Assembly (NCBI GenBank): GCA_043802865.1
Contig: JAZDKQ010000023.1
Coordinates: 607-64,606, forward strand
Reading direction: 5' to 3'
DNA: 64,000 nucleotides
From: Candidatus Moraniibacteriota bacterium
Lineage (GTDB): Bacteria; Patescibacteriota; Minisyncoccia; Moranbacterales; UBA11712
In this document: positions 23,608-49,881 of the stretch, in pieces
Position numbering within the stretch: position 1 is the stretch's first letter
Layout of the letters: each line of letters opens with the position of its first letter
The notes under the pieces: model-generated
Databases searched by the model: none
What the model was told of the DNA's origin: nothing
Seen by the model: only the letters and a program-made list of their open reading frames with translations
Position numbers and translations under genes: made by a program

Positions 23608-23641
23608 CAGCCCGAGGCTGATCCGCCTTGGGCGGAAGACC
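23608..23641. repeat. family-A-like GC-rich palindromic element (intergenic, variant)
   Basis: CAGCCCGAGGCTGATCCGCCTTGGGCGGAAGACC. Same subtype as the insert at 43171. Confidence 0.6.
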
Positions 23642-23660
23642 TAACTTTTTAAAATATATT

Positions 23661-24611
23661 ATGCGTTTAATTGTCAACATTCCGGCCTATAACGAAGAAA
23701 AAACAATCGCCGGAGTCATCCAAAACATTCCCCGTCAGATTGCGGGAATTGACGAGGTGAAAGTACAGGTCATTGACGACGGGTCGTCCGACAAGACGGT
23801 CGAAGTGTCAAAAAATGCCGGTGCGGATTTCATCGTGAGCCATCCAAGAAATATGGGTCTCGGGGTCGGGTTCAGAACGGCGATTGAGTCGGCTCTTGAA
23901 AACGGCGCGGATATCATGGTGAATATTGATGCTGATGGCCAATTTCCGGCCGGCGATATTCCAAAATTCACGGAGCTGATCGTTGAGGGCAAAGCGGATA
24001 TGGTCGTGGCTTCCCGTTTTGGGATCAAATCGGCCAAGAATATGCCGTGGATAAAAAGTTTCCTCAATCGCTTCGCAGCCAACATCATCGGAAAGTTTTT
24101 GCGCCATCCGATCGACGATCTCACTTGCGGTTTTCGGGCGCTTTCCCGCGAAACGATGCTGCGGCTCAATTTGGCCTATCGCTTCACCTATACCCAGGAA
24201 ACGATCATTGATGCTATTTCCAAAAATCTTGTCGTCAAGTGGATTCCGGTTGAAGTGACATATTTCGACGATCGAAAATCAAAAGTCGTGAAAAGCATAT
24301 CGAAATTTGTCTATCAATCATTTCTCATCATCATTCGTACTGTCCGGGACGCGCGACCGATGGTTTTTTTCGGGATTCCGGGCGTTGTTTTTATTACAAG
24401 CGCCGGTGCCATCGGAATTGCGTTTCTGGGCTACTATTTCTCCCATTTCAAAGTTTCTCCCTTCCGCACGTGGCTTTCTTTGGCCGTGATATTGCTTTTG
24501 GTCGGCGTCCAGCTTCTTGTTTTCGCGCTCATTGCCGATATGATCCGCAACAACCGGAAACTCACTGAAGAACAGATGTATTTCTTGAAAAAAGAAAAGT
24601 ACAAGAAATGA
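23661..24611 (+). CDS. GT2 polyprenyl-phosphate glycosyltransferase (DPM1/GtrB-like) with C-terminal TM helices
   Basis: MRLIVNIPAYNEE, VIDDGSSD, DADGQF motifs; two C-terminal TM segments. Confidence 0.7.
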   Translation: MRLIVNIPAYNEEKTIAGVIQNIPRQIAGIDEVKVQVIDDGSSDKTVEVSKNAGADFIVSHPRNMGLGVGFRTAIESALENGADIMVNIDADGQFPAGDIPKFTELIVEGKADMVVASRFGIKSAKNMPWIKSFLNRFAANIIGKFLRHPIDDLTCGFRALSRETMLRLNLAYRFTYTQETIIDAISKNLVVKWIPVEVTYFDDRKSKVVKSISKFVYQSFLIIIRTVRDARPMVFFGIPGVVFITSAGAIGIAFLGYYFSHFKVSPFRTWLSLAVILLLVGVQLLVFALIADMIRNNRKLTEEQMYFLKKEKYKK

Positions 24612-25714
24612 AAATTCTTTTTATATCTCATTCCTATCCTCCGATTTGGGGCGGAGTGGAAAGCCAGAACTTCAATCTTGCCGAAAATCTCAAGAAGGTC
24701 GCGGAAGTGAAAGTGATCGCCAACGGCAAGGGCAAAAAATATTTGCCGATTTTTTTGCCGATGACGCTTTTGCGAATGCTTTTTTTGATGCCGAAATTCG
24801 ATGTGTGTCTTCTGGGAAACGGCGTGCTTGCTCCTTGGGGCGTCATTGCGAAATTGTTTCATCCGTGGAAGAAACAATTTTGCGTCGTTCATGGGTTGGA
24901 TATCACTTTTGCAAACAAGAAGGGTTTTTTGTCAAAAGTTTATAAAAGTATCAACATTCCATCACTCAAAAAGCTCGACAAGCTGCTGATGGTTGGCAAT
25001 ACGACCATCGAAGAGGCGGTCAAAGCCGGAATAAGGCGGGAACATTGCGTTTTTGTGCCAAATGGGATAAACCCCAATGAATTTGCCGAGAAACACAGCC
25101 GCGGAGAGATGGCGAAAGTGCTGGACGCCGATATCGAAAACAAAAAAATAATTTTTCGACTGGGAAGATTTGTTTCGCACAAAGGAACGAGTTGGTTTAT
25201 TGATAATGTAATGCCAAAACTTCCGGAAAATGTCATAATGGTTGCGGCAGGTGGAAGAATCGGAAAGCGCGTCGCCGGCGACAAAGATGATTTTCTGGTT
25301 TGCGAAAAGATCATCAAAGAAAAAAATCTCGGCAGCCGTGTCCGTCTTTTTCCGAACATTGCCGAAAAACAAAAGAAAATTTTGCTGGGTACGGCTGATC
25401 TTGTGGTTTCGCCAAACATAAAAGTTCCGGGAACAATGGAAGGTTTCGGCATAAACGTGATCGAGGCAAGTGCTTGCGAAAGAATGGTCGTCGCTTCTGC
25501 GCTTGAAGGTCTCAAGGACGCAGTGAAAGACGGCGAGAACGGATTTTTGGTCGAGAGTGGGAATTCGGAAGCTTGGATTCAAAAAATCAAAGAACTATTG
25601 CTTTTGAGTGATGAAACGCGAAAAAAATTTGGTGAAAAAGCAAGAAAATATACGATTGAAAATTTCAGCTGGGACAAAGTAGCAAAAAGATATTTGGAGG
25701 AAATGAAAAAATAA
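24608..25714 (+). CDS. family 4 glycosyltransferase
   Basis: EGFGINVIEASACERMVVAS motif. The 4-nt overlap with the upstream gene suggests translational coupling. Confidence 0.7.
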   Translation: MKILFISHSYPPIWGGVESQNFNLAENLKKVAEVKVIANGKGKKYLPIFLPMTLLRMLFLMPKFDVCLLGNGVLAPWGVIAKLFHPWKKQFCVVHGLDITFANKKGFLSKVYKSINIPSLKKLDKLLMVGNTTIEEAVKAGIRREHCVFVPNGINPNEFAEKHSRGEMAKVLDADIENKKIIFRLGRFVSHKGTSWFIDNVMPKLPENVIMVAAGGRIGKRVAGDKDDFLVCEKIIKEKNLGSRVRLFPNIAEKQKKILLGTADLVVSPNIKVPGTMEGFGINVIEASACERMVVASALEGLKDAVKDGENGFLVESGNSEAWIQKIKELLLLSDETRKKFGEKARKYTIENFSWDKVAKRYLEEMKK

Positions 25715-25717
25715 TTT

Positions 25718-27643
25718 ATGGTCATCGATCTCCTAAAATTGATTCTCACAATCCCCTTTCTCCTTGTTTTGCCGGGGTTCTTTTTCCAATTGGCTGTTTT
25801 CGGCATGAAAAGCAGAAAAATATCTTTTTTTGAAAAAGCGGTCTTGACCGTTCCATTCAGCCTGATTGCCGTCAACTTGATCATTTTGCTTCTGGACAAG
25901 TTGAATATTCTGCTGAAAGGCCCGGTGATCGTCGGGGCTGTGCTGATATTTTGTGCTGTGTGTTTCGCGGTTTTTCAATTTCGATTCGGAAAGAAAAAAA
26001 ACAAAGAGGATGGCGTGGAGCCTGAAAAAATATTTAATTTTTCCACTTGGCAGACGATTTTCATTCTTCTTGCAATCGTTCTGGCGATTTTCATCCGCAC
26101 AGCCTATCTCTCCGATACGATCGTCCCCTCTTCAACCGATCTGGGACATCATATGTATTGGTCCCAGATGATCATCAATTCTGGACATCTTCCCGAATAT
26201 GGAATGCCGGACTTCATCATCGGTGAACATATCGTTTTTTCCGCGGTGAATCTTGTGAGCGGGGCGGGATTGATGTCGGCGATGCCGGCGCTTCTCCTTT
26301 TTCTTTTCAACATCACAGGAATTTTCACCATCGCGATCCTGCTTGGTCGGATATTTGAAAACAAAAAGATCGTCGCTGTTTCTTTTTTCGTCGCCGGATC
26401 TTTGTACGCAATAAACGCGCCGCAAGGGCGATATGTGAGCGGCGGAGTCATTGGAAATATCATTGGCGATATGCTGATTCCCGTGGCGCTATATTTTCTC
26501 TATCGTGCTCTCACCGAAAAAGATCAAATTTTTGCCGGCCTATTCCTCTTTTCATTCGCGGGACTGCTTTATACCCATCATTTGAGTGCGTTTATTTTTA
26601 TTTTTTCAATTGTTGCTATCATAGCTCTGTATCTGATATTGAACTTCAGAAATATCTTCAAGATTGCCGGAGATTGGCTGAAAGTGTTTTTGAAGCCGTT
26701 TCCTCTCGCGATTTTGCTGCTGGTCGCCTTCTTTTTTCTGTTTGTTTTCACACCGTCATATTTCAATTCAGCTGCGGTGAGTCAAGCCACGGGTACGCCC
26801 ACGAAGATCACGCGAGTTGGCTTGAGTTTGAGTCAAATTGAGAGAGGCATCGGAAGCGCCCAATTGTTTTTGGCCGGACTCGGGTTTCTTTTGGTCCTTC
26901 TTGAACTGTTTAGAGAAAAAGAATGGTCCGCCCGAGGCGGATCTCAGCCAAAGGCTGACCAGCCTCTGGCCGGCGCCGAAAAATTTGGCGGAAAATATTC
27001 CGTCGCACTTAGCTGGATTTTGATCCTTTTTGTCATGACATGGAAGCCGGCACTTCTGGATGTGAATATTCCCAGCGACCGGATAAGTAATTATTTGTTT
27101 TTGCCGATCGCTCTTCTCTCCGCCTACGGCTTGGTGCGATATTTTGAAATTTTTGGCGCGGCAGCCTCCCGCTTCTCTTCGGCTGTTTTGCTTTTCACGC
27201 TCCTGTTTTTCGTCATCACGAACGGACTTTCGGACAGCGCGGACGCCTTCAAGACAAAAAACCAATTTCAGCAAGCGGTGCAAACTTTTCACTCGGCCGA
27301 GTATCTGGCGTCAACAGTGGACACAAACAAAGATATAATTTTGAAAGACCATGTGAACATATACGGAGATTCGTGGTACAAATTGTTTTTTATGAAAGAT
27401 TATAAATATCCCCTCTCTCGAGGAGTTCTCACGCGATATGTTGATCCGACAAAAACGCGCGAAACTTGTACGCGGGACATGATCTCTTTTCCGGAAAGCG
27501 ATACCGCGAAGGAATGTTTTGCCGATACGGGCGTGAACTACGTCGCCGTGAATTCCCAGATCGAAGGCAATAGTTTTGAAAAATACCCGGATTTCTCAAA
27601 AGTCTACGGCTCGGATTATATTTCTATTTTTAGAAGAGATTAA
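25718..27643 (+). CDS. large polytopic membrane protein (possible GT-C-type glycosyltransferase/polymerase)
   Basis: At least 12 predicted TM helices plus a C-terminal soluble domain. No firm motif. Carries a family-A element in-frame at 26928. Confidence 0.4.
   Translation: MVIDLLKLILTIPFLLVLPGFFFQLAVFGMKSRKISFFEKAVLTVPFSLIAVNLIILLLDKLNILLKGPVIVGAVLIFCAVCFAVFQFRFGKKKNKEDGVEPEKIFNFSTWQTIFILLAIVLAIFIRTAYLSDTIVPSSTDLGHHMYWSQMIINSGHLPEYGMPDFIIGEHIVFSAVNLVSGAGLMSAMPALLLFLFNITGIFTIAILLGRIFENKKIVAVSFFVAGSLYAINAPQGRYVSGGVIGNIIGDMLIPVALYFLYRALTEKDQIFAGLFLFSFAGLLYTHHLSAFIFIFSIVAIIALYLILNFRNIFKIAGDWLKVFLKPFPLAILLLVAFFFLFVFTPSYFNSAAVSQATGTPTKITRVGLSLSQIERGIGSAQLFLAGLGFLLVLLELFREKEWSARGGSQPKADQPLAGAEKFGGKYSVALSWILILFVMTWKPALLDVNIPSDRISNYLFLPIALLSAYGLVRYFEIFGAAASRFSSAVLLFTLLFFVITNGLSDSADAFKTKNQFQQAVQTFHSAEYLASTVDTNKDIILKDHVNIYGDSWYKLFFMKDYKYPLSRGVLTRYVDPTKTRETCTRDMISFPESDTAKECFADTGVNYVAVNSQIEGNSFEKYPDFSKVYGSDYISIFRRD
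26928..26978. repeat. family-A element (extended variant) in-frame in membrane protein gene
   Basis: TCCGCCCGAGGCGGATCTCAGCCAAAGGCTGACCAGCCTCTGGCCGGCGCC encodes SARGGSQPKADQPLAGA. Confidence 0.6.
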
Positions 27644-27648
27644 AAACT

Positions 27649-28020
27649 ATGTCATCAAAAATAATCATCATCGCTACGGTCGTGCTTCTCATCGTGAGCT
27701 TCTCGGTGCTTTTTGTCATTGAAGCCAAAAATCACGATTACGATTACAAAAAAGCATGGAGCGTCGTGTATTTTGAAAATCCGCGGAACAATTCGCTCGA
27801 TTTCGCGGTTGAAAACCATGAAGGCGAAAAATCAGAATACGGCTACAAAATTTTTGTTGGTGACGACAAAGTGATCGATGAAAAGGTTGAGATTGAAGCC
27901 GGCGCCAAACAAAAAATCTTACCGGTGATCCCGAGCGAGAAATTGAAAGGAAACAAGATTTTGATTGACGTCAGCTACAAAGATACGGATTATAAGATAT
28001 ATAAAAGTTTGGGGAAATGA
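27649..28020 (+). CDS. small membrane-anchored hypothetical protein
   Basis: N-terminal TM (IIIIATVVLLIVSFSVLFVI); 123 aa. Confidence 0.35.
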   Translation: MSSKIIIIATVVLLIVSFSVLFVIEAKNHDYDYKKAWSVVYFENPRNNSLDFAVENHEGEKSEYGYKIFVGDDKVIDEKVEIEAGAKQKILPVIPSEKLKGNKILIDVSYKDTDYKIYKSLGK

Positions 28021-29153
28021 AAAAGATATTATTATTGACTCGGCCGATTTGTTCCCCGTGGGATGAAGGGTCGAAAAATTTTGCCTATACCCTTGCCAAA
28101 TACGCGAGTGATTTTGAAATTCATATATTAACATGCGGATCTTTAGCGGATTTGGCGGATAATATTGTTCAACATCAGATTTATACATCGCCGAAACTGG
28201 ATTTTTCTCAAAAATTCAGATTATTTAAGTTTCTTAAAAAGGCTAATGATTTTGATATCATTCATTCCCTTTTTACTCCGACAAAACTAAATTCTTTTTT
28301 TATCAAGTTTGCGTTGAAGAGTAAAAAAGCAAAATTTATTCAAACTGTTGCTACTTTGCGCGAAGATTTGTATAGCGAGGGAGATTTCAAGAAAATATTA
28401 TTCGGTGATCAGATCATCACCTATTCCGATTATGCCAAAGAAAAACTGGAGAAAATGGGTTTTGATAAAATAAAAAGAATTTATCCTGGGATTGACATTG
28501 AAAAATACTCTCCTTCTCCAAAAAATCAGGAACTCATGAAAAAACTCGAAACGAGTGAGGATGATTTTGTCATCAATTATGCCGGCGAGTATGTGCGGCT
28601 TGGGGATATGGATGATATTATCGAGACGTTTATCGGACTCGTAGAAACGCGATTAATCGCGTCTCTACAGGGAGAAATTAAAAAGAATTTCAAACTACAT
28701 CTCGCCGTGCGGGTGAAGAATGAAAAAGACGCAAATAAGAAAAAAGAAATTATTAAAAAATTAGAAAGAGAAAATATCCTGGACAGGGTGGCTTTTATTG
28801 ACGACGGCAGTTATGAGATGCAAGATATCTTTAATCTCTGTGATATTTCCATTTTCCCCGCGCGCACAATGGCCGGGAAATTTGATATTCCCCTGGCTGT
28901 CATCGAGGCGATGGCTTGCGGAAAGCCGGTGGTCGCGAGCAATCTTGAAAGGATTAAATATTTTCTCAGCAATGAAAATAGCATCCTGATCGCGCCCGGA
29001 AACCGTGAAGTCCTCAAAGAGAATATTTTGTATCTATATAATAATCCAGAAAAACGATACGATTTGGCAAAAAAAGCGATAAGGTTCGTTCGGGAAAACT
29101 TTGATATAATGAAAGTGGTGAAGGAGTATGAAGAAGTTTATGAAAAACTATGA
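28017..29153 (+). CDS. family 4 glycosyltransferase carrying an in-frame family-C palindromic element
   Basis: C-terminal FPARTMAGKFDIPLAVIEAMACGKPVVASN. Element at 28641-28671 reads VETRLIASLQG. Confidence 0.7.
   Translation: MKKILLLTRPICSPWDEGSKNFAYTLAKYASDFEIHILTCGSLADLADNIVQHQIYTSPKLDFSQKFRLFKFLKKANDFDIIHSLFTPTKLNSFFIKFALKSKKAKFIQTVATLREDLYSEGDFKKILFGDQIITYSDYAKEKLEKMGFDKIKRIYPGIDIEKYSPSPKNQELMKKLETSEDDFVINYAGEYVRLGDMDDIIETFIGLVETRLIASLQGEIKKNFKLHLAVRVKNEKDANKKKEIIKKLERENILDRVAFIDDGSYEMQDIFNLCDISIFPARTMAGKFDIPLAVIEAMACGKPVVASNLERIKYFLSNENSILIAPGNREVLKENILYLYNNPEKRYDLAKKAIRFVRENFDIMKVVKEYEEVYEKL
28641..28671. repeat. family-C palindromic element, copy 2 (in-frame inside GT4 gene)
   Basis: GTAGAAACGCGATTAATCGCGTCTCTACAGGG. 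Offset from the ATG is 624 nt, which is a multiple of 3. Confidence 0.8.
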
Positions 29154-30625
29154 ACATTGAATCTCTATTCGCTCACAAAAAGAAATTTCAAACGGACAAA
29201 ATGAAAGTCCCGGCGATTTTGCATTGCTCGGACAATCTTTTGCCGAACGAAAAAACTCTCGCGCAGCTTGAAAATACCGCTTCGCAAGAACATGTTTTTC
29301 ACCACATTGCGGCGCTTTCGGATGTTCACGACAAAAAAGGCCGCAAAAATCCGACCGGGACAGTTGTCGCGAGCGAAAATTTTCTTTTGCCGCAGATCAA
29401 CGACACGGCGCCAAACTGCGGAATGCGGTTTTTGAAAACGAATCTAACAGACGCTGATTTGGCTCCGGAAAATATCAACAAATTATTCAACGCCCTTTTG
29501 AAGCCGGTTCCGACAAAAGCCTACGTCGGATCGAAAATTCCATATTCTCTTGTCGTGGATATATGCCGGCACGGACTTAAGCCGGTGACGGAATATTTCA
29601 AGACGCGAACAAAAAATGAGATCAAAAATACTTTCAAGGGCGGAAATTTTTTTTCCGCCGAAGGCGGATCCGCCTCTGGCGGAGACATACCCAGCAAACA
29701 AGATATCACTGACGCTATTCCCCAGTTGTTTTTGTGGATTGGAAAATTTCGTCTCGGAATTCTTGGAGCGGCAGGAAATCATTTTTTGGATCTCATGAAG
29801 ATATCCGAAATAAAAGATCCTGAAATGGCAGAAAAATTTGGGATCAAAAAAGGACAATATATTTTTATGATGCACACTGGATCAGGACTTTTGGGACAGT
29901 ATGCATCGTACCTGTATACTCCAAAGAAAAAAGAACATACAAGCCAGCGCATTGTGCTTGAACTTGGGAAACTGACATGGCGATCCGGAAAGAAAGATAC
30001 CTACAAGAAAATTGCGAAGAAAATCGCCGAGTATAAAGATAAAGACGAATTTTTCGCCTATGACGCGGAATCCCCCGAAGGAAAAATGTTTTTGACGGCG
30101 CATCAAGCAGCGGGCAATCAAGGATTTGCCAATCGCTGCATTCTCACTCACAATCTTGATCAGACAATTGAAAAAGTTTTGGGAAAAAATCCCGAGCTAG
30201 AACTCCTTTATGACGCGCCGCATATTTTTGTGAATCGCGAAAACCATTTTGGAAAGGATGTTTGGGTGCATCGCAACGGCGCTGTCCGGGCGATTGCCGG
30301 AGAACCCGTTTTCATTCCGTCTTCTATGTCAACTCCTGCCTATCTGGCTGTTGGCACTGATCAGAATGAATCAACATTTTTTTCTGCCGCTCACGGCACC
30401 GGACGACGAAAAAATCCCGAAAGCAACAAAGCCGGGACAAAGGACGAATTGTTCGCGAAAATGCAGCAGCGAAAAGTAAAATTGTTCAACGCCAAATCAA
30501 AAGGTGTGGTTTTTCAGGATTCAGGATATTATAAGGATGTTGAAGAAGTGATCGCCGGAATGGAAGAAAACAAAATCGTGAAACCGGTGGCGAAAATGGA
30601 ACCAATTGCCGTTTTAATGTACTAA
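29150..30625 (+). CDS. rtcB: RtcB-family RNA ligase (divergent), carrying an in-frame family-A element
   Basis: LSDVHDKKGRKNPTGTVVAS (compare MPDVHxGxG), APNCGMRF (compare DINCGVRL), HTGSGLLGQ, HRNGAVRA, PSSMSTPAYLAVGT, AAHGTGRR. Confidence 0.65.
   Translation: MNIESLFAHKKKFQTDKMKVPAILHCSDNLLPNEKTLAQLENTASQEHVFHHIAALSDVHDKKGRKNPTGTVVASENFLLPQINDTAPNCGMRFLKTNLTDADLAPENINKLFNALLKPVPTKAYVGSKIPYSLVVDICRHGLKPVTEYFKTRTKNEIKNTFKGGNFFSAEGGSASGGDIPSKQDITDAIPQLFLWIGKFRLGILGAAGNHFLDLMKISEIKDPEMAEKFGIKKGQYIFMMHTGSGLLGQYASYLYTPKKKEHTSQRIVLELGKLTWRSGKKDTYKKIAKKIAEYKDKDEFFAYDAESPEGKMFLTAHQAAGNQGFANRCILTHNLDQTIEKVLGKNPELELLYDAPHIFVNRENHFGKDVWVHRNGAVRAIAGEPVFIPSSMSTPAYLAVGTDQNESTFFSAAHGTGRRKNPESNKAGTKDELFAKMQQRKVKLFNAKSKGVVFQDSGYYKDVEEVIAGMEENKIVKPVAKMEPIAVLMY
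29653..29684. repeat. family-A element in-frame in rtcB
   Basis: TTCCGCCGAAGGCGGATCCGCCTCTGGCGGAG encodes SAEGGSASGGD. Confidence 0.7.
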
Positions 30626-35219: not shown

Positions 35220-35225
35220 TTCCAA

Positions 35226-35366
35226 ATCCTCCCCTCCTCAGTTTCCGCCAAAGGCGGATCTGCCCCTGGTTGAGAGGAGGGGGCAGGGGGAGGTGTTGCA
35301 AGAGCGCAGAAAACTCTCAACACCCCTCTGTCCTTCGGACATCTCCCCCCATCTAAGAGGAGAAGG
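35226..35366. repeat. family-B structured element, copy 1, with a nested family-A copy (35242-35268); supplies the priA SD
   Basis: Matches 47317-47430 except for the 27-nt insert TTTCCGCCAAAGGCGGATCTGCCCCTGGT. TIRs are ATCCTCCCCTCCTCA / TGAGGGGAGAAGGAT. The 3' end reads AGAGGAGAAGG 5 nt before the priA ATG. Confidence 0.8.
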
Positions 35367-35370
35367 TTTA

Positions 35371-37828: not shown

Positions 37829-38812
37829 TTGATTAATAAACCAAAAATTGTATTCTTCGGCACGCCGGAATTTGCGGCGGGGGTTTTGAAATCGCTTGTT
37901 GGCAACAAATACAATATTGCTTTTGTCTTCACTCAGCCGGACAAAAAAATTGGGAGAAGACAAGAAGTTGTTTTTTCTCCGGTGAAAGATTTGGCGCTGA
38001 AAAACAAAATTGAAATATTTCAGCCGGAAAGTTTGCGAGACAGTGAATTGGCCGAAAAGATTAAAAAAATTGGCGCTGATCTTTTTGTTGTCGCCGCGTA
38101 TGGGAAAATATTACCCAAAGATATATTGGAAATTCCAAAATATGGAGCGATAAACATTCACGCATCTCTCCTTCCAAAATATCGCGGAGCGTCGCCGGTG
38201 CAATGTGCTATCCTCTCTGGAGAAAAAGAAACAGGGATCACAGTGATGAAAATGAACGAAAAGATGGATGAGGGTGATATTTTGGCGCAGAAAAAGATAG
38301 AGATCGGCGAAAATGAAACGGCGGATTTATTGTTAAATAGGCTGTCAAAAATTGGAGCGGACATGATTGGCGAATTTATTCCCGACTGGATTTCCGGAAA
38401 AATAAAGTCGATTCCTCAAGATCAAAATATGGCGACTTATTGCAAGCCGGTCAAGCGCGAAGACGGGAGAATAGATTGGAATTGTCCCGCCGAAGAAATA
38501 AGCTGCAAATGGCGAGCCTATTATCCCTGGCCGGGAATATATTCAATAATAAATATCTCCGCCAGAGGCGGATCCGCCTTTGACGGAAAAAATCAGCCCA
38601 AAAGGCTGAAATTGTTGGAGATAGAGATTATTCCCAATATAAAGACTGGCGAAAAAACCGGGAAAATTATAGAATATGATCAGAAAGTTGCCGTTCAAAC
38701 GGAAATTGGATTGATAATTTTGAAAAAAGTTCAACTTGAAGGGAAGAAGGAAATAGATATCGATGAATTTTTGAGAGGCAATGTCGGATTCATTGGAAGT
38801 ATTTTGGAATAA
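37829..38812 (+). CDS. fmt: methionyl-tRNA formyltransferase, carrying an in-frame family-A element
   Basis: MINKPKIVFFGTPEFA; SLLPKYRGASPVQ; C-terminal domain present. TTG start. Confidence 0.85.
   Translation: MINKPKIVFFGTPEFAAGVLKSLVGNKYNIAFVFTQPDKKIGRRQEVVFSPVKDLALKNKIEIFQPESLRDSELAEKIKKIGADLFVVAAYGKILPKDILEIPKYGAINIHASLLPKYRGASPVQCAILSGEKETGITVMKMNEKMDEGDILAQKKIEIGENETADLLLNRLSKIGADMIGEFIPDWISGKIKSIPQDQNMATYCKPVKREDGRIDWNCPAEEISCKWRAYYPWPGIYSIINISARGGSAFDGKNQPKRLKLLEIEIIPNIKTGEKTGKIIEYDQKVAVQTEIGLIILKKVQLEGKKEIDIDEFLRGNVGFIGSILE
38557..38587. repeat. family-A element in-frame in fmt
   Basis: CTCCGCCAGAGGCGGATCCGCCTTTGACGGA encodes SARGGSAFDG in the C-terminal domain. Confidence 0.7.
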
Positions 38813-42828: not shown

Positions 42829-42901
42829 GGCTGGGGTGCTAGGATTCGAACCTAGGATCATGGGACCAGAACCCATTGCCTTACCACTTGGCTACACCCC
42901 A
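42829..42901 (-). tRNA. tRNA-Gln (anticodon CUG)
   Basis: TGGGGTGTAGCCAAGTGGTAAGGCAATGGGTTCTGGTCCCATGATCCTAGGTTCGAATCCTAGCACCCCAG. U1-A72 and G73 as in bacterial tRNA-Gln; anticodon loop TTCTGGT. Confidence 0.85.
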
Positions 42902-43155
42902 ATGTTATTATATTTTTCTATAATATCTCTTTTTTCTCCCACCCCACTATAACTTTTCAAATATTTTTCCCTTAATCTGGCTTCGGGCATCGATGTATGC
43001 TGTTCTGTGTATATTAGGGCAAATGGTCTTCTTGAACGAGTAGATTTAACTTTGCCTGAATTGTGATTAGATAACCTTTTCCTGACATCAGCAGTAATGC
43101 CGACGTAACAATTATCGTCTTGTAGGCTTTTAAGAATATAGAGGTAATATTTCAT
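42892..43155 (-). CDS. GIY-YIG nuclease-family small protein; stop codon lies inside tRNA-Gln (positions 8-10)
   Basis: MKYYLYILKSLQDDNCYVGITADVRKRLSNHNSG...RPFALIY matches the GIY-YIG core. ATG at 43155; the track extension to 43221 reads through the tRNA fragment. Confidence 0.6.
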   Translation of the reverse strand: MKYYLYILKSLQDDNCYVGITADVRKRLSNHNSGKVKSTRSRRPFALIYTEQHTSMPEARLREKYLKSYSGVGEKRDIIEKYNNIGV

Positions 43156-43157
43156 TG

Positions 43158-43214
43158 TTTTACCACTTGCCTGCCCGCGGCTGAGCCTTGGGCGCGGCCA
43201 GGGGCTACACCCCA
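43158..43214 (-). repeat. duplicated 5' end of tRNA-Gln (positions 1 to about 20) interrupted by a 33-nt GC-rich family-A-like insert
   Basis: Minus strand reads TGGGGTGTAGCC-[CCTGGCCGCGCCCAAGGCTCAGCCGCGGGCAGG]-CAAGTGGTAA, immediately upstream of the GIY-YIG ATG. Confidence 0.7.
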
Positions 43215-43283: not shown

Positions 43284-43322
43284 AATCCCCCCTTATCCCC
43301 CATTAGAAAGGAAAAAATTTTT

Positions 43323-44234: not shown

Positions 44235-44252
44235 TATTTTTGATTCGTGAAA

Positions 44253-44939
44253 TTAGATCGCATAACGGCCCTTGCTATGATCTCGGATTATTTTTCCTTG
44301 ATCAAGGGTGATGACGCGTTTTTTCAGGCGATTGACGATATCCTTGTTGTGCGTTGCCAGGAGAACGGTTGTGCCGAGTTTGTTGATCTTTAGAAGCAAT
44401 TGGATGATCCCCCAACTGCTGATTGGGTCGAGATTTCCGGTCGGCTCGTCGGCAATGATGAGCGGCGGACGGTGAACAAGCGCCCGGGCAATCGCCACTC
44501 TCTGCTGTTCTCCTCCCGAAATTTCACGGGGATAGCTGTCTGTTTTGTGCGCGAGTCCCACGATCTCAAGAATTTGCGGAACCAATTCGCAGATTTCCTG
44601 TTCGCTGTGGTCGGATACTTCAAGCGCAAATGCCACATTTTCGAAAAGAGTTTTTTTGGGGAGCAATTTGAAATCCTGAAAAACTGTTCCGATCCGCCGG
44701 CGATAAAAAGGCAATTGCTTGGGAGTCAGGTGGGAAATGTCCTCTTCATTGAAAAAGATTTCGCCTGTTGTCGGTTTTTCTTCGGCATAAAGAAGTTTGA
44801 GGAGCGTCGATTTTCCTGCTCCGCTGTGCCCGACAAGAGAAACAAATTCTTCTTTTTGGATGATGAAATTGATGTCGTCAAGAGCGACGGTATGTATTCC
44901 TCCGGTATATATTTTTTTGACGTTTCGGAACTCGATCAT
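44253..44939 (-). CDS. ftsE: cell-division ABC ATPase FtsE
   Basis: Walker A GHSGAGKST and ABC signature LSGGEQQRVAIARAL. Confidence 0.85.
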   Translation of the reverse strand: MIEFRNVKKIYTGGIHTVALDDINFIIQKEEFVSLVGHSGAGKSTLLKLLYAEEKPTTGEIFFNEEDISHLTPKQLPFYRRRIGTVFQDFKLLPKKTLFENVAFALEVSDHSEQEICELVPQILEIVGLAHKTDSYPREISGGEQQRVAIARALVHRPPLIIADEPTGNLDPISSWGIIQLLLKINKLGTTVLLATHNKDIVNRLKKRVITLDQGKIIRDHSKGRYAI

Positions 44940-44942
44940 TTT

Positions 44943-46026
44943 TTATTTTTTACTGAGATACGACTCAATGAACCCGTTCAAATTTCCATCCAGCACTTCT
45001 TCCGGGTTTTTGGATTCAAATTTTGTTCGGTGGTCTTTGACGAGCTTGTATGGATGCAAGATATACGATCGGATCTGGCTTCCCCACTGGACTTCGGTGT
45101 GCTCGCCTTTGATTTCTTTCTTTTCTTTTTCTTTGTTTTCCAGATATTTTTGGTGCAATTTCGCTTTCAGAATTTTCATCGCCTGATCCTTGTTTTGAAG
45201 CTGGCTCCTTTCGTTTTGGGAGCTTATGACAATACCCGATGGGATGTGCGTCACGCGAACGGCGCTGTCGGTCTTGTTGACAGATTGGCCGCCGGCTCCC
45301 GAGGATCGGAAAGTGTCGATCTTCAATTCGCTCGGGTCAATTTCAACTCCTTCTATTTTATCAATTTCTGGCAAAACTTCAACCAGCGCGAAAGAAGTCT
45401 GGCGAAGATTTTTGGCGTTGAACGGGGAAAGGCGCACCAAACGATGCACTCCCGCTTCTGCCCGGAGATATCCGTAGGCGAGTTTTCCAACAATTTCTAT
45501 TGTCGCACTTTTGATTCCGGCTTCCTGTCCGCGCGATTCGGAAATCAGTTTCGCTTTCCATTTTTTTCGCTCAGCGAATCGGAGAAACATTTTGAGGAGC
45601 ATTTCGGCCCAATCCTGCGCGTCCGTTCCTCCGGTTCCACTATGGATCGAAAGAATGGCGTTGCTTTGGTCATAAACTCCGCGGAAAAGCGTTTCGAACT
45701 CGATATTTTCAATATCTTTTTCAATGTTTCGGTTTTTTTCTTCGATCTCCTGCTTGATCTCCGGGTCATTCGCGGCAAGACCAGCCATTTCTTTCAAATT
45801 GTCAACTTCTGTCTCGAGTTCGCTCAATTTCTTGATATCGCCTCTCAATCCCTCCAGTTCTTGCATCGTTTTCTGCGCTGATTCCTGATTTTGCCAAAAA
45901 TTTTCGCTGTTTGATATTTTTTCAAGTTTGTCAATTTTTGTTTTCTTTTGAGGCAAGTCAAAGACGGTCGCTTACGGAAGCGATTCGATCTCGGAGCTCG
46001 TCAAGTTTTGTGATGATTTCTTGCAT
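44943..46026 (-). CDS. prfB: peptide chain release factor 2 with programmed +1 frameshift
   Basis: SPF and GGQ motifs. ORF0 from ATG 46026 reads MQEIITKLDELRDRIASVSDRL then UGA at the canonical CTT-TGA-C context (minus strand, about 45957-45963). The +1 frame continues DLPQKK... for about 360 aa in total. Confidence 0.8.
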
Positions 46027-46054
46027 TGATTTTATTATATCATATATTTCGCCA

Positions 46055-46083
46055 TTGCCAAAACCAAAAAAGTCGCCTATAAT
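46055..46083 (+). promoter_or_regulatory. sigma70-type promoter for the tRNA-Gly/tRNA-Thr pair
   Basis: TTGCCA-17 nt-TATAAT, ending 18 nt before tRNA-Gly. Confidence 0.55.
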
Positions 46084-46101
46084 TCCTTTGTAAATACAGC
46101 A

Positions 46102-46172
46102 GGCGGGATTAGTTCAGTGGCAGAACACGACCTTCCCAAGGTTGAAATACGGGTCCGATTCCCGTATCCCGC
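46102..46172 (+). tRNA. tRNA-Gly (anticodon CCC)
   Basis: GCGGGATTAGTTCAGTGGCAGAACACGACCTTCCCAAGGTTGAAATACGGGTCCGATTCCCGTATCCCGCT; anticodon loop TTCCCAA. Confidence 0.8.
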
Positions 46173-46179
46173 TCTGAAA

Positions 46180-46252
46180 AGCCGATGTAGCTCAGTTGGC
46201 AGAGCGACACACTCGTAACGTGTAGGTCCGCGGTTCGATCCCGCGCATCGGC
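46180..46252 (+). tRNA. tRNA-Thr (anticodon CGU)
   Basis: GCCGATGTAGCTCAGTTGGCAGAGCGACACACTCGTAACGTGTAGGTCCGCGGTTCGATCCCGCGCATCGGCT; anticodon loop CTCGTAA. Confidence 0.8.
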
Positions 46253-47305
46253 TCAGAACACCGAAGGATCCCCTTCGGAATTGGCGGGAAGGTTTTGCTC
46301 GAAAGTTCGCATTCCGCCGTCGCGGAACTCGATTTGAGTATTGCTTGAATTCCACTGGTAGTCTTTCAAGAATATTGTAACCGAGTAAACCTTCGTTTTT
46401 TCTTTCAACCAGTCGGCAAAAGTGGTTTTTTTCACGAAAATCTGGCGAAGATGCACCAAATCAAATCCGTTGTCCATCTTTTTCTCTTCCAATTTCAGAA
46501 CATGGAACCCAAGCGGGCTTTCGATCGGTTCACTGATCTCCCCCGTTTTCATCGAAAACGCTTTGTCTGCGACAGTTTGGATCAGCTGATCTTTCGTCGA
46601 CCAGCCGAGATCGCCTCCGTTTTCCGCGCTTTGTCCGTCTGAATTTTCTTTCGCCACTTTTGCGAAATCCTCTTTTTTGCTTGTCGCTTTTTCATAGAGC
46701 GATTTTATTTTTGCTTGCTGAGTGCTTGTGTCCATTTCATTCACATAAACTTCCGCCAATTTTTCGCTGTACATTCCGGGCTTCACAACTTTTTGTTCGA
46801 AGTCATTGATGGTCCAGCCGTATAGTCTTGCAAGGTCGCTCATCAAATTGTCCTTGTTTCCGAATTGTTGGATAGTGCTCTCAAGTTCCGTGGAGACAGC
46901 ACTGTTAGTGAGTGTGATACCGCGCTTTTGAGCAAGATTTTCGATCACCTTGTTTTCGATCATTTTATTTATGATCTCTTTTTCCTTGACTTGGAGTCTT
47001 TTTACTCCTTGATCGGTTGAAAAATCAACTCGCATGCCGATTTTTTCGAAGTCCTGCGATTCATAGAATTTTTTGACGGAAGCTACATTGACTTTGATCT
47101 CATTGACACTGATGGATCCCGCTCCGCGGACATATACGGCCGGAAACGGAATGACTTTGGTCGCGCCAACAAAAAAACGGTTGTTCCAATTGAATTTATA
47201 GACGCCAAGAACCAAAAACAGCAAAAATACAAAAATCGCGCCGGCGGCAACGCCGACAATTATCCAAATTTTGTGTTTTTTGAGATTTCCTTTTTTGTTG
47301 GGCAT
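46253..47305 (-). CDS. membrane-anchored parvulin-type peptidyl-prolyl isomerase (PpiC/PrsA-like)
   Basis: N-terminal TM; parvulin segment GGDLGWSTKDQ...ISEPIESPLGFHVLKL. Confidence 0.55.
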   Translation of the reverse strand: MPNKKGNLKKHKIWIIVGVAAGAIFVFLLFLVLGVYKFNWNNRFFVGATKVIPFPAVYVRGAGSISVNEIKVNVASVKKFYESQDFEKIGMRVDFSTDQGVKRLQVKEKEIINKMIENKVIENLAQKRGITLTNSAVSTELESTIQQFGNKDNLMSDLARLYGWTINDFEQKVVKPGMYSEKLAEVYVNEMDTSTQQAKIKSLYEKATSKKEDFAKVAKENSDGQSAENGGDLGWSTKDQLIQTVADKAFSMKTGEISEPIESPLGFHVLKLEEKKMDNGFDLVHLRQIFVKKTTFADWLKEKTKVYSVTIFLKDYQWNSSNTQIEFRDGGMRTFEQNLPANSEGDPSVF

Positions 47306-47316
47306 AATAATTATGG

Positions 47317-47430
47317 AATCCTCCCCTCCTCAACTGAGGAGGGGGCAGGGGGAGGTGTTGTGATAATGCAGAAAACTTATCAACACCCCTCTGTCCTTCG
47401 GACATCTCCCCTCATCTGAGGGGAGAAGGA
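47317..47430. repeat. family-B structured element, copy 2 (intergenic, directly upstream of 46253..47305)
   Basis: 114 nt: ATCCTCCCCTCCTCAACTGAGGAGGGGGCAGGGGGAGGTGTTG...CAACACCCCTCTGTCCTTCGGACATCTCCCCTCATCTGAGGGGAGAAGGAT. On the minus strand its end provides a GGAGG motif upstream of the PPIase ATG. Confidence 0.8.
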
Positions 47431-47449
47431 TTCTAAGATTAATAAAAAA

Positions 47450-47953
47450 TCAGTTTTTTGTTGCAAAGAAAGTTCGCCACCATTTTTGCCAGTTTGAAGA
47501 TGTATCTTCCGGCATTGCAGTCGTGCTTTCAGTTTTTTCCGGTTGATTGCTTGTTTCCTGAAGGGGATCTTTTCGAAGAACGATCATCTTCTCGTCGCCT
47601 TTTTGAAGATTCAATTTTTCGCGGGCTTCTTTTTCTTGAAAATCCGTTGAAGAAAGATAGTCGATCAGGTTTTCCATATTGCTATTTTCCTGTCCCATCT
47701 GGCTTATCTGGGTTTGGAGGCCGTCAATTTCTTTCTGGATCTGCCTTTTGCGATAGGCTTCTTTTCCGAGGGATATTCCGATCAAGACGAGGACGGTCAA
47801 ACCGGCGAGAAAAAATATTCCCGAAAAAATTCTGGTCGACAATTTTGAATTTTGACTGTTTCGCTTGGCCACTTTTTGTTTTAGGAACTTAGCATTGGGG
47901 CAATAGTAAAAGCAATCATCGAGAGAACGGCAAGGATAGTGATTATCAGCCAA
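47450..47953 (-). CDS. FtsB/DivIC-like septum-formation initiator
   Basis: Single TM, coiled coil, then FQEKEAREKLNLQKGDEKMIVL (DivIC/FtsB signature). TTG start, so the start is uncertain. Confidence 0.45.
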   Translation of the reverse strand: MADNHYPCRSLDDCFYYCPNAKFLKQKVAKRNSQNSKLSTRIFSGIFFLAGLTVLVLIGISLGKEAYRKRQIQKEIDGLQTQISQMGQENSNMENLIDYLSSTDFQEKEAREKLNLQKGDEKMIVLRKDPLQETSNQPEKTESTTAMPEDTSSNWQKWWRTFFATKN

Positions 47954-48006
47954 ACTATACGCACTTTTTTCTTGTGTCTCGATTTCATAGTACTTTCATT
48001 ATACCA

Positions 48007-49881
48007 CTATTTTCGCAAAACCGCCAAAAAGGCGCTGCTCGGGATTTCAACCCGTCCGAGATTGGTCATCTTTTTCTTTCCTTTTTTCTGCTTTTCAAGC
48101 AATTTTCTCTTGCGGGTGATGTCCCCGCCATACAACTTGGCCGTCACGTCTTTTCGGAAGGCTTTGACTGATTCGCGAGCGAGGATTTTTCCGCCAACGG
48201 CTGCTTGAAGGGCAATCACGAAGTTTTGGCGCGGAATGACATCCTTCAACTTTTCCACGGTGGCTTTGCCATCCGAAAAAACTTTTTCTTCCGGAACTAT
48301 TCTTGAGAAAGCGTCAATCCTGTCGCCCCCAACAAGAATATCGAGTTTCACGAGCTTGTTCGGCCGGTACCCAAGAAACGCATAGTTCATCGAAGCATAT
48401 CCACTCGAAGCGCTTTTCAGCTGGTCATGCAAATTGATGATGACGTCCGTGAGAGGAGATTCAAAGGTGAGGATCAGTCTTTCCGCGTCTATATATTCCG
48501 TGTTCTTGTATTCCGCTCGCGTGCTCCGCATCAGATCCATAATCGAGCCGAGATATTTTGAAGGAGAAATGAGATCGAGTTTCACATAGGGCTCTTCAAT
48601 GGATTCAATGATCGAAGGATCCGGCATTTCAAGGGGAGAATATATTTTAATTTTTTTTACTTTTCCGCCCGAGGCGGATCCGCCTTTGGCGGATATTTCA
48701 TATACCACGCTTGGAGTGGTAATGACTGGGTCTATTTCAAATTCCCTTTTGAGTCTTTCCTGGACAATTTCTATATGAAGGAGTCCTAAAAATCCGCAGC
48801 GAAATCCCCGTCCTAGCGCCAGATTGGCTTCCGGTTCAAACGCGAACGCGGCATCGTTGAGTTTCAATTTTCCCAGCGCGTCTCGCATGAAGTTGTAATC
48901 GTCTCCTTCTTTCGGATAGAAACTGGCATAAACAACCGGCCGGATCTCTTTGTATCCGGGAAGCGCCTGCATTTCGCCTGGGTTTTTTTCCAAAACGATC
49001 GTATCGCCGACGCGGCAGTCTTCGACGGTTTTGAATCCGGTCGCGATGTATCCGATATCGCCCGCGGACAATTCATTTGTTTTTTCCAAATTCGGCTTGA
49101 AATGGCCGACTTCGATCACGGAACTTCCCTGCTTGGTCGCCATAGCGAGAATTTTTTCTTCGGCATGGATCTTTCCGTCGACAATTCGGACATAGGCGAG
49201 AACTCCTCTGTAGGTATCATATTTTGAATCAAAAATGAGAGCGCGAAGAGATTTTTCCTGTTTTCCTTTGGGAGAAGAAATTTTTTCGACGATCGTTTCA
49301 AGAATTTTTTCAACGCCTTCCCCTGTTTTCCCACTGGCCTCGAGAATTTCTTCTTCCTTGCAGCCGAGAAGATGAACGATTTCTTTTTTCGTTTTTTCTA
49401 TCTCGGCGTTCGGAAGATCTATTTTGTTGATCACGGGAATGATTTCCAGCCCCTGTTCGATGGCATAATAGAGATTGGCGACTGTCTGCGCTTGTACGCC
49501 TTTTGACGCGTCCACAAGCAAAACCGCGCCCTCCACAGCGGCCAGGGAGCGAGAAACTTCATATTGAAAGTCCACATGCCCGGGAGTGTCTATGAGATTC
49601 AAGATAAAAAAGTCCGGCTTTGAGGAATTGGAGGCGTCAGCCGACAAGGGAAAAGCCGGACTTTGATTTGAAATCCGAGGACTATAAATCATCCTTACGG
49701 GTTGTAATTTTATAGTAATGCCACGCTCGCGCTCAAGATCCATCGTGTCCAGAAGCTGTTCTTTCATCTTTCGATCTTCGACCGTATGCGTAATCTCAAG
49801 CATCCGATCGGCCAGAGTGGATTTCCCATGATCGATATGCGCGATTATACAAAAATTCCGGATGTTTTGCTGGTTATTCAT
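48007..49881 (-). CDS. lepA: elongation factor 4 (LepA) carrying two in-frame palindromic insertions
   Basis: IIAHIDHGKSTLADR, NLIDTPGHVDF, conserved C-terminal domain. Extra segments GGSASGG and SPRISNQSPAFPLSADASNSSKPD. Confidence 0.9.
   Translation of the reverse strand: MNNQQNIRNFCIIAHIDHGKSTLADRMLEITHTVEDRKMKEQLLDTMDLERERGITIKLQPVRMIYSPRISNQSPAFPLSADASNSSKPDFFILNLIDTPGHVDFQYEVSRSLAAVEGAVLLVDASKGVQAQTVANLYYAIEQGLEIIPVINKIDLPNAEIEKTKKEIVHLLGCKEEEILEASGKTGEGVEKILETIVEKISSPKGKQEKSLRALIFDSKYDTYRGVLAYVRIVDGKIHAEEKILAMATKQGSSVIEVGHFKPNLEKTNELSAGDIGYIATGFKTVEDCRVGDTIVLEKNPGEMQALPGYKEIRPVVYASFYPKEGDDYNFMRDALGKLKLNDAAFAFEPEANLALGRGFRCGFLGLLHIEIVQERLKREFEIDPVITTPSVVYEISAKGGSASGGKVKKIKIYSPLEMPDPSIIESIEEPYVKLDLISPSKYLGSIMDLMRSTRAEYKNTEYIDAERLILTFESPLTDVIINLHDQLKSASSGYASMNYAFLGYRPNKLVKLDILVGGDRIDAFSRIVPEEKVFSDGKATVEKLKDVIPRQNFVIALQAAVGGKILARESVKAFRKDVTAKLYGGDITRKRKLLEKQKKGKKKMTNLGRVEIPSSAFLAVLRK
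48664..48695. repeat. family-A element in-frame in lepA
   Basis: TTCCGCCCGAGGCGGATCCGCCTTTGGCGGAT encodes SAKGGSASGGK (minus-strand reading). Confidence 0.7.
49609..49664. repeat. family-D palindromic insertion in the lepA G-domain region
   Basis: AAAGTCCGGCTTT...31 nt...AAAGCCGGACTTT (13-bp inverted repeat). Coincides with about 18 extra residues before NLIDTPGHVDF. Confidence 0.55.

Follow-up and report, generated by a model that had tools for sequence, protein, structure and literature searches.

A 30-nt GC-rich double-hairpin repeat, probably mobile, in conserved genes of Moraniibacteriota and other bacterial phyla

Why should a compact bacterial genome carry the same GC-rich palindrome in several unrelated conserved genes, each time with the reading frame preserved? 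The question is raised by a 64,000-nt stretch of DNA from Candidatus Moraniibacteriota bacterium (GenBank assembly GCA_043802865.1, contig JAZDKQ010000023.1, positions 607 to 64,606), hereafter the window, in which a first-pass annotation made from the letters alone had noticed a repeat of about 30 nt that we call family A. The analysis presented here suggests that family A is probably a non-autonomous mobile double hairpin made of 15-nt modules, comparable to the repetitive extragenic palindromes (REPs) and to the Rickettsia palindromic elements (RPEs). It is an element of the REP/RPE kind with unusual traits, namely a length of 30 nt, a palindrome at the level of codons, and an identical sequence in different phyla. 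All coordinates are window positions, L-numbers denote DNA loci, and P-numbers denote protein orthologues.

Anatomy of the element

The family-A unit is a 15-nt hairpin, TCCGCC-NRA-GGCGGA, with a 6-bp stem and a 3-nt loop. The usual form consists of two such units abutting in inverted order, which gives 30 nt with loops NRA and then TYN and a junction that consequently reads GGATCC. The window holds seven copies, five of them intragenic (Table 1), at a density of about 0.11 per kb. With up to three mismatches, the consensus pattern matched five window loci against 0.00 expected, CCGCC-N3-GGCGG occurred eight times (0.04 expected), and CAGCC-N3-GGCTG occurred three times (0.03 expected). A profile built from 121 copies of other genomes recovered the copies at 29654, 48664, 38558, 23607 (nhmmer E = 2.6e-6), and 35244, as well as the first unit of 26927, and the copy at 55636 surfaced in a scan for perfect GC-rich hairpins. 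The G+C content of the window copies is 63-73%, compared with 43.6% for the window overall. An Rfam scan of the window at gathering thresholds returned only RNase P RNA and three tRNAs; the element thus matches no known RNA family.

Most of what the first-pass annotation had claimed about the repeat itself stood up. Six of its seven copies are borne out, the GC-richness it remarked on is evident, and the consensus search that it proposed gives counts far above chance at both window and genome scale. The seventh copy, at 43171-43203, does not belong to the family: the 121-copy profile does not match it, it folds no better than shuffles (z = -0.76), and it is a different palindrome. One further copy, at 55636-55665, lies outside the range first read. 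The interval originally given as 26928-26978 becomes 26927-26992 (66 nt), and other ends were adjusted to exact 30-mers. The description of a palindrome with CCGCC/GGCGG arms around GGATCC was right, but the conserved structure proved to be two independent 6-bp hairpins, not one long hairpin.

Empty sites in relatives

Judged by alignment with close relatives, the window copies are insertions. The syntenic contig L124, whose RtcB is 88% identical, spans about 22-39 kb of the window and lacks the element at all five comparable sites; in L121, both lepA and fmt are without it. Six window sites can be compared with these two relatives (fmt, rtcB, lepA, the membrane-protein gene, and both intergenic sites) and all six are empty there. 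The fmt copy accounts for a difference of precisely 30 nt, and its target is not duplicated: L124 reads ...CTA/AAAAAT... and the window ...ATC(30 nt)AAAAAT.... The L121 site is also clean and empty. The membrane-protein gene is longer by 66 nt, the L124 orthologue being 23 codons shorter exactly at the insert, and the LigB-priA spacer measures 18 nt in L124 versus about 150 nt in the window. The closest RtcB orthologues (P0122-P0128, 82-88% identity) have no insert, nor does the majority of 120 RtcB orthologues. The lepA insert is likewise missing from the nearest LepA orthologues P0001, P0002, and P0004 and from most of 120 LepA orthologues; it is present in P0003.

At the protein level, homologues of solved structure lack the LepA segment, with a 7-residue gap relative to Thermus EF4. 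Those of RtcB and Fmt show no conserved counterpart of the insert, in a region where the alignments are poor. An AlphaFold model of RtcB (mean predicted local distance difference test score, pLDDT, 88.6) places the insert in a coil and gives its 10-residue block a confidence of 56, lower than that of any other block. These comparisons agree with the earlier expectations that relatives would offer empty sites and that the intragenic copies add a flexible Gly/Ser/Ala peptide where homologues have short loops; the suggested alignment check is informative for LepA and poor for RtcB and Fmt. The same loops carry other inserts in further lineages, for RtcB in P0157, P0161, P0168, P0216, P0222, and P0240 and for LepA in P0013, P0029, P0042, P0051, P0088, and P0119. 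Some of these, e.g., ...VIPAQAGIQS..DSG..GMT... and KACPPGNAKRCGR, resemble translations of further palindromic repeat families. Since unrelated inserts occupy them in other lineages, the LepA and RtcB loops are permissive sites.

In a LepA tree, the two-unit insert appears in the window protein (WIN), P0003, P0028, P0076, P0080, P0078/83, and P0104, that is, in at least six scattered lineages, each amid empty relatives and with positions offset by 0-3 residues. This patchiness, which rtcB shares, could mean that insertions were few and that filled alleles spread by homologous recombination, for example through natural transformation, in which case the element would serve as a kind of uptake or recombination signal. 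Filled alleles do share a few flanking codons absent from empty ones, namely KVKK following the insert in lepA and DIP following that in rtcB, as such spread would predict. However, no extended tract of raised identity is visible around either insert, the window lepA as a whole resembles the filled L123 less (about 80%) than it does the empty allele L122 (about 90%), and the insert positions vary between lineages. Recombination moreover cannot generate copies in unrelated genes. DNA uptake sequences and uptake signal sequences are species-specific short motifs, present at about one per kb, that arise largely by point substitution. Family A differs from them in its density of about 0.1 per kb, its occurrence across phyla, and its form as discrete 30-nt indels. 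We therefore regard spread by recombination as very unlikely to be the main explanation.

Coding behaviour

As had been noted from the sequence, the intragenic copies preserve the reading frame: all five in the window are in frame, and they share a single frame. Of 126 copies from other genomes, 75 fall in stretches of 600 nt or more that are free of stop codons (compared with 74% for random positions), and 64 of the 75 use the same frame 0. Because TCC/GGA and GCC/GGC are reverse-complement codon pairs, frame 0 reads S-A-x-G-G-S-A-x-G-G in either orientation, with SAKGGSASGG and SAEGGSASGG as the most frequent peptides; the remaining frames give Pro- or Arg-rich peptides. The genes that carry it include those for aspartyl-tRNA synthetase (AspRS), GrpE, and DnaE, as well as one for a GH57-like enzyme and one for an ABC solute-binding protein. 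The best reading of the frame bias is that it reflects which copies survived once inserted.

In three Ignavibacteria genes (L029 6021, L042 390, and L072 2838), the element was seen at the same point of a type A sorting domain of the type IX secretion system (T9SS), between ...VxF and ...LxSGVYFY.

Structure and covariation of the stems

As DNA, the copies fold into two hairpins of -9 to -13 kcal/mol with z values of about -3 to -4.4; these include the hybrid copies at 23607-23636 (two hairpins, -11.7 kcal/mol, z = -4.4) and 55636-55665 (z = -3.1). As RNA, they fold into one long hairpin of -19 to -23.5 kcal/mol, and the RNA fold that had been proposed as a check is well above shuffles. Variant stems occur beside or in place of the canonical one, namely TCAGCC/GGCTGA, CCAGCC/GGCTGG, CCCGCC/GGCGGG, TCGGCC/GGCCGA, TTCGCC/GGCGAA, and CCCTCC/GGAGGG. 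Under the two-hairpin model, 97.8% of cells in 15 variant dimers are paired and six of 12 pairs have changed on both sides, a covariation score reached by none of 500 shuffles. The same analysis rejects one long RNA hairpin as the selected structure, since its covariation is not above shuffles (54/500), and the hybrid dimers at 23607 and 55636 disrupt the long hairpin and retain both short ones. The stems thus appear to evolve by compensatory changes that keep two separate hairpins. We treat this as supporting evidence and not as decisive because the sequences were hand-picked.

These data bear on whether the element owes its retention to a benefit, be it that of a flexible Gly/Ser linker in proteins or that of expression control by a stable hairpin in mRNA or DNA. 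An RNA hairpin of -19 to -23 kcal/mol is possible, and inserts do occupy loops and linkers, such as the copy in the E2 subunit of pyruvate dehydrogenase, which lies in the linker following a lipoyl domain. Against usefulness, the codons are fixed at the DNA level where protein-level selection would permit drift, the sequence is no different in intergenic copies, the host genes have no relation to each other, the closest relatives manage without the inserts, and covariation favours the two DNA-type hairpins over the long RNA hairpin. Retention for function is, on this evidence, highly improbable.

Flanks, target, and amplification

Together, 123 distinct copies taken from other genomes yield the consensus tTY / TCCGCC N-R-A GGCGGA TCCGCC T-Y-N GGCGGA / r-A-a, where slashes mark the borders of the element. 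The loop order NRA then TYN holds in >95% of copies, which means that the dimer is a unit followed by its reverse complement. In the flanks, T is present at -2 in 85% and A at +2 in 77% of copies, both in 65%, and the 5' and 3' biases are independent of each other. Because the flanking bases pre-exist in clean empty sites, TTY/RAA reflects a preference for certain targets and does not belong to the element itself. The flanks form direct repeats in 5.7% of copies versus 0.8% in the null, and this low frequency rejects a general target-site duplication. These comparisons show that insertion proceeds without target-site duplication and that the flanks have the consensus TTY/RAA. Two copies with 11-15-nt direct target repeats and 45-nt insertions were seen at L061 7340-7400 (a cysteine desulfurase gene, with the copy translated in the Arg-rich frame) and L036 4725-4790 (the UvrC N-terminus). 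A preference for nesting inside other palindromes was also considered and rejected, the rate being 7.3% versus 5.5% and not enriched overall.

Pairs of copies within one genome carry an identical loop-triplet pair in 11 of 24 cases compared with 4.9% between genomes, as expected if copies are made from a local master. The middle loop bases of the two units avoid Watson-Crick pairing (G/T 41 and A/C 29, together 70, versus G/C 14 and A/T 15, together 29; Fisher p = 9e-5), a result that runs counter to complementarity between the loops and implies that many copies have an orientation. On the sense strand of frame-0 genes, NAA/TCN was found 26 times and NGA/TTN nine times. An oriented master copy may underlie the avoidance of pairing.

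A route with no dedicated enzyme would be template switching, in which a nascent strand stalled at a T-rich/A-rich site anneals to the TT/AA flanks of an existing copy, copies the hairpin, and returns. The lack of target duplication, the resemblance of both flanks to those of other copies, the imprecision of some junctions, the 11-15-nt flank duplications of some copies, and the lack of a transposase among the window open reading frames (ORFs) scanned are all in keeping with such a route. It would leave unaccounted for the recurrence of exactly these stems in different phyla, the compensatory stem families, and the strong clustering of the sibling family described below beside GIY-YIG genes and in tRNA fragments, and the fmt event is exactly 30 nt despite 2-3 nt of microhomology on each side. 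Template switching is accordingly an unlikely source of the element, less so than spread by recombination.

Distribution across genomes

The exact 30-mer with free loops (24 fixed bases) was scanned in one genome per GTDB species, a total of 596 Gb. At least 120 species genomes matched, where the chance expectation is well below one. By record title, about two-thirds of the matches listed are Patescibacteria of many classes. The others listed are Omnitrophota, Kiritimatiellae/Lentisphaerae/Verrucomicrobiota/Planctomycetes, Ignavibacteriota/Bacteroidota, Chloroflexota, Margulisbacteria, Firestonebacteria, one Desulfotomaculaceae metagenome-assembled genome (MAG), and several bins labelled Gammaproteobacteria, so that the hosts beyond the Candidate Phyla Radiation (CPR) comprise at least eight other phylum-level groups. 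Some of these labels are doubtful, yet the broad host range is real because the loci span 30-70% G+C, lie on megabase-scale contigs, and include copies in T9SS genes, a marker of the Fibrobacterota-Chlorobiota-Bacteroidota (FCB) group. Phages were rejected as the vector, with only two exact matches in 2.9 million IMG/VR contigs.

All 120 genome matches listed are MAGs, which raises the concern of an assembly, adapter, or amplification artefact of metagenomic sequencing. The element is nevertheless found both in short assemblies and in contigs of up to 1.6 Mb, submitted by many different projects; the independent assemblies L123 and L125 share orthologous filled sites; and the reading-frame bias is strong and the loops are genome-specific. 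It also matches none of the common sequencing adapters known to us. We consider the chance of an artefact to be practically negligible.

In the searchable literature, the sequence, the half-sequence, and the peptides return only cloning primers or nothing, and no description of the element. The original remark, made subject to a literature check, that no characterisation of such an element in CPR-like genomes was known agrees with this search. The element is not specific to CPR, as many phyla carry it.

In one Kiritimatiellae MAG (L005 4569-4752 and 6390-6572, also L002 and L050), the element lies inside a 185-nt composite repeat that also holds another repeat, with the translation ...CHPERSEE...RYARNDN....

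The sibling family, GIY-YIG genes, and tRNA fragments

Compensatory stems, TCAGCC-NRA-GGCTGA + CCAGCC-TYT-GGCTGG, distinguish a sibling family, which is present in at least 120 metagenome contigs (L128-L247). In genes, its dimer is translated as QPxA(D/G)QPxA(G/E), and the frame with TGA is avoided. When ORFs from 120 CCGCC loci and 120 sibling-dimer metagenome loci were clustered, the largest cross-locus cluster consisted of small GIY-YIG proteins. At 17 of the 120 loci (14 without apparent duplicate contig pairs), where about two would be expected, no more than 200 nt separate a sibling dimer from a small GIY-YIG gene; the usual place of the dimer is 14-27 nt upstream of the gene's start or 0-80 nt beyond its stop. 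A tRNA gene lies no more than 400 nt from the dimer in 26 of 124 cases. At about two dozen inspected loci of this kind, a partial copy of the adjacent tRNA is interrupted by the hairpin within its D-, anticodon-, or T-loop, a few bases away from the point at which tRNA homology ends. The T-loop insertions read GGTTC/AAATCC, in agreement with the TTY/RAA preference of the CCGCC family. The possibility that these are intron-like inserts in functional tRNAs was rejected, as removal of the element restored a detectable tRNA in none of 251 cases.

A recurrent order was seen in L143, L145, L152, L154, L157, L165, L182, L186, L187, L193, L202, L207, and L216: first a partial tRNA copy that the double hairpin interrupts in the D- or anticodon loop, next a small GIY-YIG gene, and last an intact tRNA. 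In L186, a hairpin dimer stands on either side of the GIY-YIG gene. Sibling hairpins also split a partial tRNA beside an intact one with no GIY-YIG gene between them (L129, L162, L169, L198, L203, L208, L209, L231, and L232), and hairpins of the CCGCC family do so in L047, L084, and L101, in each case in the T-loop at GGTTC/AAATCC. Among GIY-YIG homologues picked regardless of hairpins, three of five distinct loci (L248, L250, and L251) have the same theme.

The window contains a local version of this theme. Its tRNA-Gln gene (42829-42901) harbours a small GIY-YIG gene, and the 43171-43203 palindrome that had first been assigned to family A lies close by in a tRNA-Gln fragment (Table 1). A nearly identical palindrome splits another tRNA-like sequence in L248 (about 1370-1410), and in L250 (about 940-960) only its 14-nt ends occur, at the same position. 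The second small GIY-YIG gene of the window, at 7243-7533 (-), has no adjacent tRNA or GC-rich hairpin. Two tandem GIY-YIG genes, each preceded by a tRNA-Leu-like copy, were seen at L258 1001-1635 in a 1.74-Mb contig.

Free-standing phage homing endonuclease genes of the seg/mob type, which also encode GIY-YIG proteins, are small selfish cassettes found beside conserved genes. The small GIY-YIG ORFs here are similar: their location is at tRNA genes, where part of the tRNA is duplicated and a GC-rich hairpin insert lies near the junction. We know of no hairpin component in described GIY-YIG homing cassettes, and the link from these genes to solo hairpins in protein genes is only statistical and concerns only the sibling family. 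That link is a lead and not proof; the association could also arise if partial tRNA copies made by GIY-YIG cassettes serve as neutral structured targets.

Comparison with known systems

REPs are GC-rich imperfect palindromes of 20-40 bp with a stem of 6-9 bp and a GTAG or CGTC tag at one end of the stem-loop, and they are regarded as selfish and non-autonomous (PMC3733652). They form inverted, hetero-, and hybrid dimers, sometimes 1-2 bp apart, and nest in other palindromes, and intragenic REPs of 20-30 residues are known in Opitutus terrae and Rickettsia conorii, including in DNA-repair and tRNA-synthetase genes (Di Nocera et al., PMC3733652). Like REPs and the related REPINs, family A forms inverted dimers, including the CAGCC/CCGCC hybrids at 23607 and 55636. 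Its stem has 6 bp and its fold is significant, but its unit is only 15 nt, half the REP size, and only the dimer reaches 30 nt. Further differences are that the units have no spacer and that neither GTAG nor CGTC occurs in the element or its flanks among 123 copies. In addition, REPs are predominantly extragenic whereas family A is mostly intragenic (75/126 copies in long stop-free spans; 5/7 window copies), and REP families are lineage-specific whereas the family-A sequence is identical across many phyla. The REP-associated tyrosine transposase (RAYT), often flanked by repeats in REP genomes, was found neither in the scanned window ORFs nor beside the family-A copies searched.

RPEs are palindromic and in frame in many unrelated housekeeping genes at positions compatible with the fold; they measure about 150 bp, within a defining range of about 100-150 bp, comprise ten families, and are restricted to Rickettsia (PMC10969869). 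Family A is also in frame in unrelated conserved genes at structurally tolerated positions, and the RPE-like behaviour proposed at the outset is supported and extended. It differs in its 30 nt and in its hosts, which include CPR, Omnitrophota, FCB, the Planctomycetota-Verrucomicrobiota-Chlamydiota (PVC) group, Chloroflexota, and others. By defining features, family A is closer to REP dimers than to RPEs.

Other systems offer partial parallels. MITEs, the miniature inverted-repeat transposable elements, typically measure 50-500 bp, with terminal inverted repeats that match a parent insertion sequence (IS) and with target-site duplications. The bacterial ones (Correia, ERIC, RUP, and others) are non-autonomous, palindromic, multi-copy, and occasionally intragenic (PMC10969869, PMC3184786). 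In contrast, family A is 30 nt long, has no target duplication (fmt being exact), and has no parent IS seen in the loci searched. Palindromic elements derived from IS200/IS605 insert free of duplication 3' of a short specific target, in a manner that depends on DNA hairpins. Family A fits them in its absent duplication and its hairpins, but its target is the two-sided TTY/RAA instead of a one-sided tetranucleotide, and a search with TnpA of the window and 127 loci gave one IS200, with unrelated hairpins.

In mitochondria, GC clusters and hairpin elements are very short GC-rich repeats that invade AT-rich compact genomes, genes included, with no enzyme known to us. Yeast mitochondrial GC clusters, Allomyces double-hairpin elements, and sponge mitochondrial repetitive hairpins are organellar analogues of family A (PMC4478555, PMC2800124). 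They differ in being organellar and lineage-restricted and in having other sequences. To our knowledge, no in-frame codon-palindrome logic has been described for them. PARCELs are coding repeats with dyad symmetry and a patchy occurrence across distant microbes, where they form 25-residue tandem repeats in accessory surface proteins (PMC2996958); family A instead forms dispersed 10-residue inserts in housekeeping genes.

A candidate enzyme and a proposed mechanism

Pfam searches of 40 of the 63 window ORFs revealed no transposase, integrase, or Y1/HUH enzyme, and none appears in the Pfam annotation of the syntenic L121 and L124, which covers most of the rest. The nucleases in the window are the two small stand-alone GIY-YIG genes and one PD-(D/E)XK gene. 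A longer element with the same termini was not seen in about 1.8 Mb of loci, and the L005 composite carries no transposase gene.

If family A is mobile, insertion could be driven by structure in single-stranded DNA. A nuclease or transposase that recognises hairpins and acts in trans would set the element at T-rich/A-rich junctions and in the loops of other stem-loops. Surface-loop insertions in the Ser/Ala/Gly frame would then be nearly neutral and survive, and all others would be purged. The near-neutrality would follow from two properties, lengths (15 and 30) that are divisible by three and a palindrome, TCC-GCC/GGC-GGA, that specifies small residues whichever way it is read, and it would let the element persist in genomes that are about 90% coding.

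Several observations weigh against a mobile double hairpin. Mobility is deduced from comparisons only, no enzyme having been found in the material scanned. An IS200/RAYT partner was sought by tblastn of the window and 127 loci (about 1 Mb), with IS200 TnpA and the E. coli RAYT as queries, and was not supported there: a single IS200 was found (L066), and its end hairpins are unrelated. Three window events are not clean 30-nt insertions. In rtcB, the net difference is +27 nt, which fits a 30-nt insert with a 3-nt loop difference; in lepA, it is +18 nt within an indel-rich, Lys-rich loop; and the copy at 23607 together with its 14-nt imperfect flank duplicate makes a 44-nt insertion, L124 having a single copy of the 14-nt sequence and no element. 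The covariation set consists of 15 variant dimers picked by hand from pattern matches. For the CCGCC family itself, linkage to GIY-YIG genes (2/126) and to tRNA (5/133) is not significant. Finally, identical stems in phyla from 30% to 70% G+C are not explained by vertical descent and require either repeated horizontal transfer or a very widely conserved partner. With these points taken into account, a non-autonomous mobile element of the REP/RPE type is still the reading that we hold to be probable.

The sole candidate enzyme that the data point to would be the small GIY-YIG nucleases beside sibling copies, and the textbook alternative to it is a HUH enzyme of the IS200/RAYT type. A bolder proposal, tentative and in our estimate rather doubtful as a whole, is that the 15-nt hairpin modules are the working ends of an undescribed bacterial mobile system whose partner is a stand-alone GIY-YIG nuclease of about 85 residues instead of a transposase. 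Its cassette would lodge in the loops of tRNA genes and leave a partial tRNA copy split by the hairpin, and 30-nt codon-palindromic, non-autonomous derivatives would colonise coding sequence in either orientation. The derivatives would move between phyla that share groundwater or sediment habitats, possibly between CPR episymbionts and their hosts. If this proposal were true, they would be the smallest known mobile elements. Independently of it, the link of the sibling family to GIY-YIG genes and tRNA fragments offers a testable candidate for the machinery behind REP/RPE-like repeats without RAYTs.

As a mobile element, family A would be among the smallest self-propagating DNA elements known. 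It illustrates a way for selfish DNA to survive where a genome leaves hardly any space non-coding: with a length divisible by three and a palindrome of Ser/Ala/Gly codons, it does no harm in one frame, whichever way round it lies. In uncultivated lineages, it makes the surface loops of essential proteins (LepA, RtcB, Fmt, AspRS, DnaE, and GrpE) longer and more diverse, which bears on alignments, phylogenies, structure prediction, and gene calling in MAGs. A 30-mer common to CPR, Omnitrophota, Ignavibacteriota, PVC, and Chloroflexota is also a possible tracer of DNA exchange through habitat or symbiotic contact.

Window features and neighbouring repeats

Table 1. Coordinates of the family-A copies and associated features in the window.
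Feature	Position	Strand	Details
14-nt imperfect duplicate	23593-23606		GAGCTTAACTTTTT, of AGACCTAACTTTTT (23637-23650) directly after copy 23607-23636
Hybrid dimer, intergenic between divergent glycosyltransferase genes	23607-23636		TCAGCC-CGA-GGCTGA + TCCGCC-TTG-GGCGGA; one CAGCC and one CCGCC unit
66-nt in-frame composite, membrane-protein gene 25718-27643(+)	26927-26992		translated SARGGSQPKADQPLAGAEKFGG
30-nt dimer in rtcB (29150-30625 +)	29654-29683		peptide SAEGGSASGG
Degenerate dimer, LigB-priA spacer	35244-35273		unit 1 intact, unit 2 TCTGCC-CCT-GGTTGA; profile E = 1.6e-5
30-nt dimer in fmt (37829-38812 +)	38558-38587		peptide SARGGSAFDG
Small stand-alone GIY-YIG nuclease gene	42892-43155	-	Pfam PF01541, E = 9e-16; lodged at tRNA-Gln
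Separate 33-nt GC-rich imperfect palindrome	43171-43203		CCTGGCCGCGCCCAAGGCTCAGCCGCGGGCAGG; splits duplicated tRNA-Gln 5' fragment, 16 nt upstream of GIY-YIG start
30-nt dimer in lepA (48007-49881 -)	48664-48693		peptide SAKGGSASGG
Variant dimer, glycosyltransferase gene 54607-55758(-)	55636-55665		CCAGCC-GGA-GGCTGG + TCCGTC-TTG-GGCGGA; peptide SAQDGPASGW

In the 66-nt composite at 26927-26992, a CCGCC-stem dimer is interrupted by a CAGCC-stem dimer nested in it (26944-26973) plus GAAAAA, and the nested dimer is a match to the sibling family. The degenerate copy at 35244-35273 sits centrally in a second C-rich/G-rich inverted repeat in the LigB-priA spacer; these inverted repeats, called family B in the first-pass annotation, surround it at 35225-35370, and similar CCCCT...AGGGG arms flank the element in L075, L114, and L120. 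The G domain of lepA contains a second, unrelated in-frame palindromic insert at 49609-49664 with perfect 13-nt arms (AAAGTCCGGCTTT / AAAGCCGGACTTT). L121 has a related version of this insert and L122 a shorter one; L123 and the PDB homologues lack it.

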